This document shows positions 57,409-64,000 of a stretch of 64,000 nt of DNA, one piece after another. This DNA is from a virus (Duplodnaviria; Heunggongvirae; Uroviricota; Caudoviricetes): IMG/VR virus record IMGVR_UViG_3300038409_000042; one strand, written 5' to 3'. Within the stretch, counting starts at the first letter, position 1; every line of letters starts with the position of its first letter. The notes below the pieces were generated by a model. It did not search any database and was not told the origin of the DNA. It was given only the letters and a program-made list of their open reading frames with translations. The position numbers and the translations under genes are program-made.

Positions 57409-60400
57409 CTATCTTGATTCCATTGGCTGAGGCTCCGCTGGCGTTATTTCTCTTGAAAATTGAGACCCCTTTTCTCTCAGAATAAAGCTCCTGATTGGCT
57501 CTGTGGAGGCTCTATATTCACGGACACGTCGTTGCCCGACCTTCATCTTCTCGCGATAAGTATCTTTAAGTCTTTCGTGGAATTCACGTATACTTTGTAT
57601 TTCCTGTTCTTTTTCTGCTTCTGATCTGTCAGAATCGGCTCTAATCGCTGCGATTTGTCTATTCATCTCAGCTTTAGAGTAACCAAGTTGTCGTTTCATT
57701 TCATCAACGTCACGTTCCATCCGGCGTGCGTTGCGCTCCGTCTGATCAACCGGGTCCAGAGCCCACGTGTTGAAGCCAAGGGCTCGCGCCGCCAGGGCCG
57801 AATAATCCTCTACATACTTGCCGCTAGTCGTGACGCCGTCTCCGAAAGTCTTATCCAGGAAGCGGCCCATAAAGCCGCTGGAGCCAAACTGTGGTCGCTC
57901 ATAGCCGCCAGCCAGAAGGTCAAGCTGTTGAAAGAGAGGGTCGACCATGCCGCGCATTATGGGGGGCATGTAATAATTAAATGCATAGGAAAGGAAGCCG
58001 GCTAATTTCTGTGTGTTACTTGCTCCCTCAGGCCAAAGATCATAGCCAGTGAAACGATCTTTTCCGGTTGTATAAGCAACTATGAAATCAATAAATGGAC
58101 CACCAGCACCAAGGTCAAATGGTAATTTCATGACAAGATTTGGCAGAATATCCTGATGGCCGCCTTCGAACATATTACGTCCAGCTTGGGCCATTGGTGT
58201 CCATGGGAGATAGACGCCAAGATCAGTAAGAACGAAGTTTCCATGAGAATCCCGAATTGGTAGCGGAATGACCCCAACATTTCTGCGGAGTTCTTTGGAC
58301 ATTGAGGCCCGAAGCGCTTCAGCTTCATCTTCATCAAGACCCATTAGTAAAGCCACGACGCTCCAGAGAAGTCCAGAATAGAGCATAATAGGAACTGATA
58401 GTCGCGTAATGTCCGACACGCCAGAGGCTAATATTTTTGGATTAATTTGCATAAATCCATCTCTGATTTTAGCCAATCCTCTTGTGCCGAGATCAACCAT
58501 CTTGGGGAAGAGCTTGTATTGCCAAGTAATGAATGGGAAGATAGTGTTTCTCAACAATCGAACAGCTGGAGGAACCAATGTATAGTCAGGTATCCATTCG
58601 AAGCTTTCAATAATGGCGTCTCCAGGAGCCATCTTTGAATGTTTCGTGTGGAAGAAAAACATTGTATAGCGGGCCATTGTGTCGTAGAAGTTGTAGAGGT
58701 CTGCCGCCTTGCCGCCAGCCTTCGTGATAATTCTTTCAACTTCCTTATAGGCAGTCTCTAATCCAGAAAGTGAAGTATTTTTCCTCTTAAGTTCTCTGAT
58801 CTTAAGCTCCGACAGAGCGTCAAGAGTTCTCCTGATTTCAGCCTCTGTAAACGTGCCTTGGATACCTCCGAGTTCCTTAAACAGTTGCCACATGGCGCTG
58901 TTCTTTTTAGAGTCGATAAGCGCCCTAGCCGCCCAAACCGTTGTATCGGCACCTAATGTATAGGAAGACCCAACGCCCCCAAGATAAAGTGTCATTATGT
59001 TCTGCATGATCTGCCGAACATGCGTTGGCGGGTTGAGAGTTGTGACAATCCTTTTGAACCCGCGCATAAATCGGCCGGTCGCCTTATCCACTAGTTTTTC
59101 AATCTCTGGCTGATTGACTGATGCAGCTCCAGCCATCCCGACAATGTCGTTGTAAATTGCCTTATGGACGATTAATCCAGAGATATCTCCATAAGCATAT
59201 GTGGTCGGGAGCTTTCGATACGTATCTTTATCAAACTGGACAATGTTTTCGAATGAAGTTCCAACACCAACCTTCACATTAGCATTCTTGAAGATTGTTT
59301 CTATTTCATCTATGAGTTCTTGGTTGACCTTTCTCAAGAAGGGATTTTCAAGGGTCTCTCTGCTGGCGGAAAGTCTACGAAGTTCATTCCCAAGCGCATC
59401 AAAGGTCATCGTTCTGCCGTGATATTTGACGAATTGGTGCGGGATAACCCATCCCATATTATTAATACCGGACACATCTGCCATATAGGCGATCTCTTCC
59501 ATGAACCTGATGACAGAGATATCCCGACCCTGACGAATAATGCCAGCATAGGTTAAGAAGAATGGATCGGTAATGAGACCGAGCGTAGCATCTTGCTCAT
59601 AAACTCTTCCCATGCTGGCCTTGTTATTTAGAGCCACACGGAATTGGTTCTGCATATAGTTATCGCCATAACGAGCGACAAACGTACCATTTTTCTTCTT
59701 TGGCTTAATGAAGCCAGAAGCATCTATCTTCTGTTTTACTCTTTCAAGTTCACTACGTGCCCTTGCCGCCAAGTTTCTTAAACCGTTGTGAGTAACTGAA
59801 CTGAGTTGTTTCTTTGGGTTTCTAAGGAATTCAATGAATTCATCCTTCTGAGTGATATTGGCAGTGTCCCATATCGGCTGCACGTCACGCCTCAATATCT
59901 CAACATTCATGGCCTCATCAACCACGTTAGAGGCGTTCCATATCTCCTGTCCGATGCTGTCTCCAAGACGCTGCTTGGTATATGACTGTCTAGAGGCTTT
60001 CAGGCCCTGTTGCGTAAGCTCCCTTTGGACGTATTCCATTAACATCCGTGGAAGGTACATACCCATGTATCTGGAATACTGAGCTGTATCCAGTACGCCA
60101 GTCTGCTGAAACTTCTTTCCGAGCCTCATAAACAGGTCTTTAGCCTCGATTGCTGCCGCTCTAATTTCTGGATTTGAAATTCCGAGAGGGGCCGCATTTT
60201 TATGCGTCATGTAGTAATTAAATTCGTCACGATCCTTCTGGCTTGCCGTGTTCATGAAGTGAATAAACTTCTGAGCGAATTCTTCGAATTCGTTAATGTT
60301 TCCCCCAGTTCTTCCTCTCGAAACGAGATAAAGATTCTGATAAGGAAGATCATTCAGAGTGAAATACCATCGAGTCCATTTGCTTGTTTTAAGAAGCTGT

Positions 60401-63400: not shown

Positions 63401-64000
63401 CTTCCCTGAGCTGCTAATAACAAATCGGCCGCTAGATTTTCCAGATGCGCCATTTCAGAATTGAAGTTGCTGATCGCTTCGTTAGTATCAGCATCGGTAA
63501 TATCGTTCTGCGAGATGGAACTTTGTGTCTCCATGTAGTCCTTGAAGGTCATAGCCCTCTTGACTTCTGCCTCGCTAGAATCTGCGGAAAATTTATAGTT
63601 GGCCTTTACTTGCTCAGGGACATTCGTTTCATTACTTGGTTTATCGACGACTTCACGAGCCTTGATTATGAAGGCTTTTATCTGCGCGATCGTTTTGTTA
63701 TTCAGACCCTTTGTGATCACTTCCGGCCAGAGGTTCGTTATGACCTCTACGTAAGGGGCCTTGCGTTTGAAATTCAACTTATTGACAGCTGCCTCAAAAG
63801 CCTCTTTACTGTCATAGTTGTCCCGTAGGTGCGCCAGGGCCTCATCGACGTTCTTGATCGGAGCGGCGATCTGTTCTGGCGTGAGAACAGCTTTAGCAAC
63901 TTCCTCAACGGTAGGCTCTTCGGCCTTTTCTCTGTATCCAGTTACAGCTTGAAGTCTTGCCTCAGTATCGTCTTCTGATTCTGGGACAAGTTTTTTCGAA
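57409..64000 (-). CDS. giant multidomain protein (>2190 aa, N-terminus beyond window) with two HExxH zincin-like motifs and a GNAT-like segment; candidate polyvalent/virion-injected protein
   Basis: The track ORF 57409-63777 begins at a TTG. The same frame stays open with no stop to position 64000 (upstream residues include ...EAFEAAVNKLNFKRK...). Motifs: NRINHELFHAINQ; LVHEIQHLIQDHE; GRRLGIKMYQALAKKV...RILVSDVNVSEEAARVYEGKTMNNEF (GNAT-like). Coiled-coil C-terminus. Confidence 0.7.
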   Translation of the reverse strand, partial: SKKLVPESEDDTEARLQAVTGYREKAEEPTVEEVAKAVLTPEQIAAPIKNVDEALAHLRDNYDSKEAFEAAVNKLNFKRKAPYVEVITNLWPEVITKGLNNKTIAQIKAFIIKAREVVDKPSNETNVPEQVKANYKFSADSSEAEVKRAMTFKDYMETQSSISQNDITDADTNEAISNFNSEMAHLENLAADLLLAAQGRVEINVENTNEMLERSSYRAATYLRRLNENDRIEIIDKHEKAYKPGTTGAAFKQYAMNSVIERLAANNDGGPMLMRNGNNIPTPNLEERAVAEAATIAMAIRGHLNKIGLKDVGVRIAKNILTWEGMFEHARVADAYASYFAKTVTLAYSRIDPGMTLEEKIAVATNRINHELFHAINQLGVLNKTEQEAIKRYVHKSGKVDELRNAPAYQGLDELTLEEEAAAELYREFSRNKRVGVPGPVKMALYRISRFIEGLITALNSVGIKIDSDLIVNAEDVFMAIQEGYAARVARNLARGAKTASGRASSASFLFGSMGGLTANGLNLAAADAMEKGGVPMEEIFRETGWFRGRDGSWRYEISDKYAKIDLKKLKAEPTKRKLLPYRVALEDFGRASGLLDAGYYKLWEILDHPQLYKAYPHLKNINVFPSRALSGAFVTGGTIYINPDYTRKEFIYNPNTATLQPGYTVKQVLVHEIQHLIQDHEMLARGGSWNEFMSESDSKTYDALRALMHHFEDIGKKIGPDTMKLFRELVYKKEIAYERYWNLYGELEARRASERMDMTLAERKANFPYTEKEIANSEAISEFFGVAQMADENFPKLDNEFRIEFKWNISEDENYRVSLMHEGKEIGFIRGRVQPNNRAVRIDGSAITEEFQGKIVDGKYQGRRLGIKMYQALAKKVQQYNQGLPPNKRRILVSDVNVSEEAARVYEGKTMNNEFHVLTNPHMEPIIEGEGTRLTFVGGPIYAILPKNTEGKVDWKDVMDRYYPSNTKGADHIGPMLMAPYGRSITDLPMKSSTIIPTKVMNPRTGTITPVNVHRNPTATQVSRMDFSEDSDVRFATDREGNIYVSEQVPLHAYIFTAAGLVDPLNNVVGDIRQPTPQNAGYLIKDKDTGTIRVVGSRTYSGAKATEAQNEADLISQRILDKSMNQGPRPMMMATPNQVRKMMRYLRQQTKAKRAAAKIGALGAPIPTPANVPGSRVLGTNSVDTIKQIINQTPTMNPKQLLKTSKWTRWYFTLNDLPYQNLYLVSRGRTGGNINEFEEFAQKFIHFMNTASQKDRDEFNYYMTHKNAAPLGISNPEIRAAAIEAKDLFMRLGKKFQQTGVLDTAQYSRYMGMYLPRMLMEYVQRELTQQGLKASRQSYTKQRLGDSIGQEIWNASNVVDEAMNVEILRRDVQPIWDTANITQKDEFIEFLRNPKKQLSSVTHNGLRNLAARARSELERVKQKIDASGFIKPKKKNGTFVARYGDNYMQNQFRVALNNKASMGRVYEQDATLGLITDPFFLTYAGIIRQGRDISVIRFMEEIAYMADVSGINNMGWVIPHQFVKYHGRTMTFDALGNELRRLSASRETLENPFLRKVNQELIDEIETIFKNANVKVGVGTSFENIVQFDKDTYRKLPTTYAYGDISGLIVHKAIYNDIVGMAGAASVNQPEIEKLVDKATGRFMRGFKRIVTTLNPPTHVRQIMQNIMTLYLGGVGSSYTLGADTTVWAARALIDSKKNSAMWQLFKELGGIQGTFTEAEIRRTLDALSELKIRELKRKNTSLSGLETAYKEVERIITKAGGKAADLYNFYDTMARYTMFFFHTKHSKMAPGDAIIESFEWIPDYTLVPPAVRLLRNTIFPFITWQYKLFPKMVDLGTRGLAKIRDGFMQINPKILASGVSDITRLSVPIMLYSGLLWSVVALLMGLDEDEAEALRASMSKELRRNVGVIPLPIRDSHGNFVLTDLGVYLPWTPMAQAGRNMFEGGHQDILPNLVMKLPFDLGAGGPFIDFIVAYTTGKDRFTGYDLWPEGASNTQKLAGFLSYAFNYYMPPIMRGMVDPLFQQLDLLAGGYERPQFGSSGFMGRFLDKTFGDGVTTSGKYVEDYSALAARALGFNTWALDPVDQTERNARRMERDVDEMKRQLGYSKAEMNRQIAAIRADSDRSEAEKEQEIQSIREFHERLKDTYREKMKVGQRRVREYRASTEPIRSFILREKGSQFSREITPAEPQPMESR

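Follow-up and report, generated by a model that had tools for sequence, protein, structure and literature searches.

What kind of protein does a phage encode in a reading frame so long that it runs off the end of the available sequence? This question is raised by the giant gene at one end of the 64,000-nucleotide (nt) stretch of IMG/VR virus record IMGVR_UViG_3300038409_000042 (Caudoviricetes); the whole stretch is referred to here as the window. We consider it probable that the frame represents residues 1460-3655 of a 3655-amino-acid (aa) phage polyvalent protein, and that this protein is the large member of the ejection-protein set of the phage. An earlier note on this DNA, made from the letters alone, had likewise proposed a polyvalent protein delivered with the virion. 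That proposal is supported by an LPD23 domain, two conserved HExxH modules, fold matches of the C-terminal module, the payloads of the relatives, and the location at the end of the late operon beside an ejection-protein homologue. The gene occupies 14% of a phage genome of ~77.5 kilobases (kb) and must therefore pay its way.

Completion of the giant gene

In translation, the giant open reading frame (ORF) ran on the minus strand from 63999 to 57412, a span of 2196 sense codons that is closed by TAG at 57409-57411, in agreement with the stop-free frame from 57409 to 64000 described earlier. The ORF lister had placed the start at the first TTG (63777), the frame being nevertheless open up to the window edge. 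The earlier note had taken this TTG for a mere first occurrence and had noted that the frame reads on upstream to the window edge. It continues further in the complete 3655-aa protein (P0001), which is 100% identical over the window part. Residue numbers in the window equal P0001 residue numbers minus 1459.

The upstream sequence that the earlier note had wished for was obtained from L005, a Logan contig from SRR12952646 with DNA-level identity to the window, which was reached via P0167, a member of the P0001 cluster. It supplied the missing 4.4 kb and a GTG start codon with an in-frame stop 15 nt upstream. L005 14377-30968 corresponded to window 64000-47409 and L005 1-879 to window 879-1. On this identical contig of 77.5 kb, 13.5 kb separate the two window ends, which indicates that the source genome is circular or circularly permuted with a length of ~77.5 kb. 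The stretch between the window ends contained the first 4.4 kb of the giant gene together with late genes that cover 9 kb upstream of it, and part of the late operon accordingly falls outside the window. Within the window the gene is represented as follows:

57409..64000, minus strand: C-terminal part of the giant gene, 2196 codons plus TAG; the first 1459 codons lie beyond the window

The P0001 cluster contained further 3655-aa copies, carried by contigs 77.5-77.6 kb long from JGI and Logan assemblies. Recovery of the same frame and product in independent assemblies argues against a hidden frame break or a misassembly, and the latter reading was rejected on this ground. Megablast of the giant-gene region against 50,697 phage records returned zero matches, and locus searches with P0001 or with an alignment of its close relatives gave no confirmed relatives in IMG/VR, JGI metagenome contigs or GTDB genomes.

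Constant ends and a variable middle

The five closest relatives of P0001 kept the N-terminus, the first HExxH module and the C-terminal module; the GNAT-like and orphan segments were not shared. Because the middle is swapped among close relatives while the ends are kept, the architecture is, judged from sequence, that of a constant chassis (N-terminal domain plus C-terminal module) with an exchangeable middle payload. Across 14 full-length members of the C-terminal-module family we found 19 Pfam families, and the payloads comprised InPase, LPD23, ddrB-ParB, SLT, ResIII/helicase, LPD37, ART-PolyVal, LPD1, RadC, methyltransferase, GNAT and Zeta toxin, a set that agrees with the one published for phage-type polyvalent proteins (PMC5512222). 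The payload of P0001 appears to comprise two HExxH zincin-like modules (LPD23 being fused to the second), a GNAT-like domain that is probable but degenerate, and an orphan segment.

The N-terminal domain (P0001 aa 1-340, beyond the window) is rich in glycine and alanine and carries an EELPQS..EQ motif. It was common to P0001 and the five closest relatives and was also found in gp60 of Pseudomonas phage H66 (BLASTP E 9e-7; hhalign 95.8%). Residues 161-656 matched phrog_10089, a family of giant "DarB-like" proteins, and the N-terminal motif showed a weak match to N4 gp50 aa 390-432 (hhalign 39.7%, E 3e-4). The region from aa 340 to 1700 is acidic and rich in helix, and no relatives of it were detectable.

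The C-terminal module is the most conserved part of the giant protein and the signature of its family. It comprises the following features:

57448..60384, minus strand: conserved all-alpha C-terminal module ("chassis"), window aa 1206-2184, P0001 aa 2665-3643
58345..58401, minus strand: strongly hydrophobic, transmembrane (TM)-like helix LSVPIMLYSGLLWSVVALL, P0001 aa 3326-3344, Kyte-Doolittle 19-residue mean 1.95
58300-58344, minus strand: acidic motif MGLDEDEAEALRASM, directly after the TM-like helix
57448..57753, minus strand: terminal long two-helix hairpin, window aa 2083-2184, predicted local distance difference test (pLDDT) >90

The structural model of the module was nearly all alpha-helical (pLDDT 80; predicted template modelling score 0.78). 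The TM-like helix was the sole segment above 1.5 on the Kyte-Doolittle scale within the window part of the protein. The succession of helix and acidic motif was also present in relatives, with the consensus "G.DDDD.EKL", and in the model a beta-hairpin is predicted after the acidic motif. The C-terminus described earlier as coiled-coil corresponds to the predicted terminal hairpin.

When 1.84 billion representatives were scanned in full with HMMER, 1117 relatives of the C-terminal module were found at E<=1e-3 and 238 at E<=1e-30. In every match among those listed the module formed the C-terminal end of a protein of 1000-5000 aa. It had no match in Pfam, NCBIfam or PHROG, and against PDB no counterpart was found except generic helical hairpins. 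Comparison of the predicted fold with BFVD matched the last pieces of many viral proteins, with E values down to 2e-20 and template modelling scores of 0.45-0.58 over ~1000 columns. The matched entries were annotated as large polyvalent protein-associated, ART-PolyVal, Zeta toxin, helicase, RelA/SpoT or lysozyme-bearing, and included proteins of Cellulophaga phages phi19:3 and phi46:3, Anabaena phage A-4L and Ralstonia phage Alix. The module represents a family of more than 1100 clusters that is missed by current family libraries and has no solved structure. It offers a handle with which such proteins can be found and compared in metagenomes, and with which one can ask how a 400-kDa protein is packed and ejected.

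Two HExxH modules and the LPD23 domain

Both HExxH motifs reported in the earlier note were present in the translation (NRINHELFHAINQ and LVHEIQHLIQDHE), and both were conserved in homologues. From the composition of the full protein the expected number of HExxH motifs was 0.04, and with P(>=2) ~9e-4 two occurrences are unlikely by chance. The modules are arranged as follows:

62497..63279, minus strand: HExxH module 1, P0001 aa 1700-1960, with HELFH at 62878-62892 and EEEAAAE at 62728-62748; putative gluzincin-like metallopeptidase
62305..62472, minus strand: LPD23 domain (Pfam PF18838), window aa 510-565, P0001 aa 1969-2024
61630..62304, minus strand: HExxH module 2, directly continuing LPD23, with HEIQHLIQDHE at 61954-61986 and GELEAR at 61747-61764; putative zincin-like metallopeptidase (MPTase)

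Module 1 was common to all five closest relatives and P0012. In an alignment of seven sequences (A6) the residues R127, H130, E131, H134, E146, Y169, E179, E180 and A181 were invariant. This corresponds to the pattern R-x-x-H-E-x-x-H-A followed by E1845, Y1868 and E1878-E1879-A in P0001 numbering, which was present in 7/7 sequences. A profile of this module retrieved nothing relevant from PDB and so provided no fold evidence.

The LPD23 assignment was well above threshold (Pfam E 6.9e-17; 61.4 bits against a cut-off of 27), with a pLDDT of 86-98 in the AlphaFold 2 (AF2) model. Module 2 reads HEIQHLIQDHE..GG and then GELEAR, and together with LPD23 it was modelled with a pLDDT of 75-98. The succession LPD23, HEIQHxIQxxE and GExEAR was found in 15/15 other giant homologues examined and in H66 gp60. 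Across 16 sequences the residues H, E, H, Q, E ... G, E, x, E, A, R were near-invariant, and the insert between the two helices of the module varied from 30 to 213 aa across giant homologues. The module 2 profile matched only zincins in PDB, namely IrrE (E 0.005), an IrrE orthologue (0.075) and a neutral metalloprotease (0.09). This supports, without establishing, a gluzincin-like nature of module 2. No kinship between modules 1 and 2 was detectable past the motif itself. Both modules are putative metallopeptidases, and the fixed fusion of LPD23 and MPTase merits specialist attention.

The GNAT-like segment and the orphan segment

The middle of the window part continues with two segments:

61225..61617, minus strand: GNAT-like segment, window aa 795-925, P0001 aa 2254-2385
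61384-61428, minus strand: motif A region DGKYQGRRLGIKMYQ of the GNAT-like segment
61255-61323, minus strand: motif B region LVSDVNVSEEAARVYEGKTMNNE of the GNAT-like segment
60385..61224, minus strand: orphan middle segment, window aa 926-1205, P0001 aa 2385-2664 (~280 aa)

The peptides on which the earlier note had based a resemblance to the GNAT acetyltransferase core (GRRLGIKMYQALAKKV...ILVSDVNVSEEAARVYEGKTMNNEF) were present in the translated ORF within 61225-61617. In GNATs the pyrophosphate of CoA is bound by a loop of the form Q/R-x-x-G-x-G/A. The corresponding loop of P0001 is Q-G-R-R-L-G, with R instead of the central G; shifted by one residue it reads R-R-L-G-I-K, and the motif is not reproduced. 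P0064 was the single homologue of the segment (E 7e-8 in a small database), and its motifs were canonical, with the loop H-G-K-G-M-G and N-x-x-x-E-A-x-R-V-Y-E..G-Y. The top PDB match of P0064, across the motif A/B region, was YsnE (1yx0; E 0.14), which we take to be a GNAT. A phmmer search of PDB with the P0001 segment found no GNAT. Taken together, a GNAT fold of the segment is probable at a sub-threshold level and acetyltransferase activity is uncertain; the resemblance seen earlier is real but weak, with an altered CoA loop and scores below the Pfam cut-off. The segment was also aligned with the RRxGIA segments in P0013 and P0002; this alignment of three sequences was set aside, the motif being its sole basis.

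The orphan segment had no match in Pfam or PHROG, and no homologue was found by word-index search (aa 771-1160) or among 88 family members. A word-index search with the sub-region aa 301-960 gave a single match.

Gene order and cysteine suppression

The genes for terminase, portal and major capsid protein are on the same strand as the giant gene. Past the window edge, L005 encoded a protein resembling tail fibres, a virion protein of 626 aa and a number of small proteins. The late operon closes with three genes: one of 373 aa, whose product is homologous to a "DNA ejection protein" (phrog_4287, E 2e-18), one for a protein of 451 aa, and finally the giant gene. The phage carrying the relative P0003 (contig L003) had the same gene order, with neighbours 34-38% identical and with lysozyme and holin genes after the giant gene. 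In H66 the giant gene closes the structural block ahead of the lysis genes, and in N4 the gene for the virion RNA polymerase (vRNAP) closes the late block.

P0001 contained 0 cysteines in 3655 aa, compared with 0.83% in 31 other proteins of the window (P ~5e-14). Among its relatives 69/89 were free of cysteine, with an overall content of 0.026%, and N4 gp50 also contained 0 cysteines. The absence of cysteine extended over three successive late genes (373, 451 and 3655 aa; L005 7506-20968) flanked by genes of normal cysteine content, and the corresponding 339-, 605- and 3321-aa genes of the P0003-carrying phage (L003 7131-19966) were also cysteine-free. In a study of phage DEV, cysteine suppression was reported across the Schitoviridae ejection operon gp73-gp72-gp71, an operon likened to T7 gp14-15-16, and was tied to passage through the periplasm (PMC11445570). 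By analogy with that cysteine suppression, the giant protein would be an ejected protein. The cysteine-free three-gene run ties polyvalent proteins to ejection operons.

Class and proposed function

Assignment to the polyvalent class is based on an LPD domain within a very large polypeptide, a conserved HExxH with a downstream Glu helix, the late-gene setting, and relatives with unrelated enzymatic payloads. Assignment to the ejection set is based on the late-gene run that ends in the giant gene beside a recognised ejection protein and on the suppression of cysteine; a sequence or fold relation of the giant protein to a solved ejection protein was not found. Several observations weigh against the reading as a whole. 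The GNAT-like segment scored below the Pfam cut-offs for Acetyltransf_1 (E 0.01; 16.6 bits against 20.7) and Acetyltransf_7 (E 0.067; 14 bits against 27), and its AF2 model was of low confidence (pLDDT 30-57), with three strands and then a helix in the order seen in GNATs. The C-terminal module showed no detectable kinship to the PLxRFG domain of H66 gp60 (hhalign 0.4%) or to N4 gp50 (5%), which means that virion association is transferred via the other modules and the gene order. Furthermore, the phage is known from metagenomes alone, and the anti-defence role is one that we infer.

The individual steps of a possible mechanism are held less firmly than the class, and virion packaging, ejection and catalysis are all presumptive. 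The sequence features with their conservation, the composition and the gene order were observed, and gene order places the giant protein, as the product of the last gene of the structural operon, among those made late. It would then probably enter the capsid together with the adjacent ejection proteins, as suggested by homologous modules in virion proteins verified by mass spectrometry. At infection it would exit via portal and tail in a mostly unfolded state, before the DNA or together with it; the absence of cysteine points to this, as for the N4 and DEV ejection proteins. The C-terminal module might use its hydrophobic helix to anchor the protein to the inner membrane or to the conduit for ejection. 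The metallopeptidase modules could then cut either the polyprotein itself, which would free the payload, or host targets; such processing or host cleavage has been proposed for the MPTases of polyvalent proteins (PMC5512222).

We tentatively raise the further idea, which we hold as possible rather than probable, that the C-terminal module is a universal "ejection chassis" of phage polyvalent proteins and the counterpart in function of T7 gp16 or of the C-terminus of N4 gp50. It would dock to the medium ejection protein in the capsid and subsequently insert in the inner membrane, whereupon the zincin modules would free the payload into the cytoplasm. If this were true, "polyvalent proteins" and "large ejection proteins" would be one machine. 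An injected polyvalent protein would be the first thing met by the host cell and may carry effectors against host defences or physiology. Candidate effectors here are the two putative metallopeptidases, the GNAT-like domain and the orphan segment.

Alternative explanations

Part of the same evidence could be explained by a purely structural component of the ejectosome, which would form or extend a trans-envelope DNA conduit like T7 gp16, use its metallopeptidases to open the cell wall, and have neither an anti-defence role nor a payload to release. The position of the gene in a cysteine-free run after an ejection-protein homologue is consistent with this, as are the one TM-like helix within a large all-alpha module and the SLT transglycosylase domains in 2/14 relatives, and exactly such a role is proposed in a preprint on phi24B for its 2811-aa, LPD-bearing gp47. 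We regard this explanation as unlikely, since the middles of the family carry ART, Zeta toxin, ddrB-ParB, helicase, RadC, InPase and GNAT domains, all with cytoplasmic targets, and a middle that is unconserved even in close relatives is a better fit to exchangeable effectors. A conduit function and a payload are partly compatible and not exclusive. A polyvalent protein that never enters the virion is very unlikely in our estimation. Such a multi-enzyme, for instance a DarB-like antirestriction factor, would act in the cytoplasm of the producing cell, and the match of the N-terminal region to phrog_10089, annotated "DarB-like antirestriction", would be in line with it. However, DarB itself is packaged in the head (Iyer et al., PMC5512222), the domain scan revealed neither a methyltransferase nor a helicase in P0001, and gene order and absence of cysteine favour ejection.

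The earlier note had offered an N4-like, vRNAP-type ejection protein as an alternative, which would transcribe early genes after injection. Size, position as last gene of the late block and absence of cysteine all agree with a vRNAP, and the weak N-terminal likeness to N4 gp50 aa 390-432 points in the same direction. However, scans of the full 3655 aa with Pfam, NCBIfam and PHROGs yielded no RNA polymerase family, which also bears out the remark in the note that no polymerase motifs could be recognised by eye. No PDB sequence match was obtained although a structure of the N4 vRNAP core exists (PDB 2PO4), and the HExxH and C-terminal profiles failed to match N4 gp50. With no detectable polymerase domain this candidate was rejected, and we attach next to no probability to it. 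A tail fibre, tape-measure or other external tail protein is extremely unlikely. One BFVD structural match, from Anabaena phage A-4L, was annotated "Tail protein", and the NCBIfam model of the unrelated C-terminal domain of the H66 protein bears the nickname "tail-700". No tail-fibre or tape-measure families were matched, a distinct tail-fibre-like gene lies upstream, and HExxH modules, LPD23 and a hydrophobic helix are present; cysteine is absent across the family and the payloads of the relatives are intracellular. Canonical RNA polymerase or tail-fibre domains, which the earlier note had named as a result that would speak against its proposal, were thus both missing from the scans.

Other genes in the window

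Directly downstream of the giant gene the window encoded a metallophosphoesterase (56557-57369, minus strand), followed by a 131-aa ORF. The third gene downstream (55833-56168, minus strand) encoded a PF04447 dATP/dGTP pyrophosphohydrolase (E 9e-25), which could point to manipulation of the nucleotide pool or to modified DNA. A scan of 10 ORFs revealed no PurZ-like gene. In the structural block, two adjacent paralogous genes of 135 and 139 aa (852-1685, minus strand) both matched phrog_644 (E 2.5e-32 and 5.7e-22) and represent a tandem duplication. The portal protein is unusually long with 977 aa (9325-12258, minus strand); the portal PHROG spanned residues 96-761 and left ~215 C-terminal residues uncovered.

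On the plus strand we found a gene for a Ro60/Rsr-like protein with TROVE and VWA domains (38700-40049; PF05731 E 2.8e-12, PF13519 E 9e-7). Just upstream of it are two tRNA-like elements, one at 38162-38225 (plus strand; Rfam tRNA 52 bits, model positions 5-66 only, no ARAGORN call) and one at 38428-38498 (plus strand; ARAGORN "tRNA-Ser tga", Rfam just 36.9 bits). The RNA partners of bacterial Ro60, the YrlA-type Y RNAs, carry a tRNA-like module, and the elements beside the TROVE gene may therefore be candidates for phage Y RNAs. At least seven conventional tRNA genes (Met-cat, Arg-tct, Ile-gat, Leu-taa, Tyr-gta, Ile-tat and Trp-cca; 13835-16908 and 54889-54961, plus strand) were also present, five of which are clustered just upstream of the gene for the small subunit of ribonucleotide reductase. 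Accessory genes at 14047-14838, 51632-52492 and 33172-34176 (all plus strand) encoded a second VWA-domain protein, an SPFH/Band 7 protein and a DUF932 protein. The window further encoded an ERF recombinase (47957-48631) and a Toprim-DnaB primase-helicase (40998-42686).

Comparison with known systems

Among proteins with a described role in ejection, T7 gp16 is the largest and last of its ejection-protein run, a role in gene order analogous to that of P0001 (PMC11445570). The likeness is one of gene order alone; unlike T7 gp16, P0001 has no N-terminal transglycosylase and is ~3x larger. The vRNAPs N4 gp50 and DEV gp71 are closer in size (~3500 aa) and, as P0001, are encoded last in the late block after smaller ejection proteins. 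They have strong cysteine suppression, an HExxH module and a weak N-terminal motif match in common with P0001, which differs from N4 gp50 in having no RNA polymerase domain and in its unmatched C-terminal and HExxH profiles. The phi24B preprint describes gp47 (2811 aa, with LPD5, LPD1, LPD38 and a MuF-C metallopeptidase) as a large polyvalent protein of a short-tailed phage that was detected in virions, was invisible in the cryo-EM map and is a proposed ejection protein. Its set of LPD domains differs from that of P0001, and the two are likened here by description.

A protein that shares sequence with P0001 is gp60 of H66/F116 (Hollowayvirus), a "PLxRFG domain-containing protein" of similar size (3787 aa), for which the GenBank note reads "verified by mass spectrometry as part of the virion". 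Both proteins share the module of LPD23, HExxH and GExEAR (28% identity, E 6e-18) as well as the EELPQS N-terminal motif, and in both phages the gene closes the structural block. H66 gp60 additionally has a methyltransferase and LPD3, and it ends in the NF032893 "tail-700" PLxRFG domain (796 bits), which P0001 does not match. Membership of P0001 in the PLxRFG family was rejected (no NCBIfam match at E<=1; hhalign negative).

The phage-type polyvalent proteins were described by Iyer, Burroughs, Anand, de Souza and Aravind in 2017 (J Bacteriol; PMC5512222). P0001 differs from this class in its C-terminal module (~1000 aa) and N-terminal domain, for which no Pfam model matched, and in the 280-aa orphan of its middle. 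Its second MPTase has Q, not D, three residues past HExxH and is not the subtype singled out in that study. As in the described class, P0001 is a giant single polypeptide encoded among phage structural genes and carries an LPD domain (LPD23). It also has more than one HExxH MPTase module of the zincin-like kind, in which a variable insert separates the helix with HExxH from the one with Glu. A GNAT payload has precedent in the class, and the relatives of P0001 carry ART-PolyVal, InPase, ddrB-ParB, RadC, helicase and lysozyme/SLT domains. Known here from metagenomes only, the giant gene is in our view a real, large and ordinary member of the known polyvalent class.

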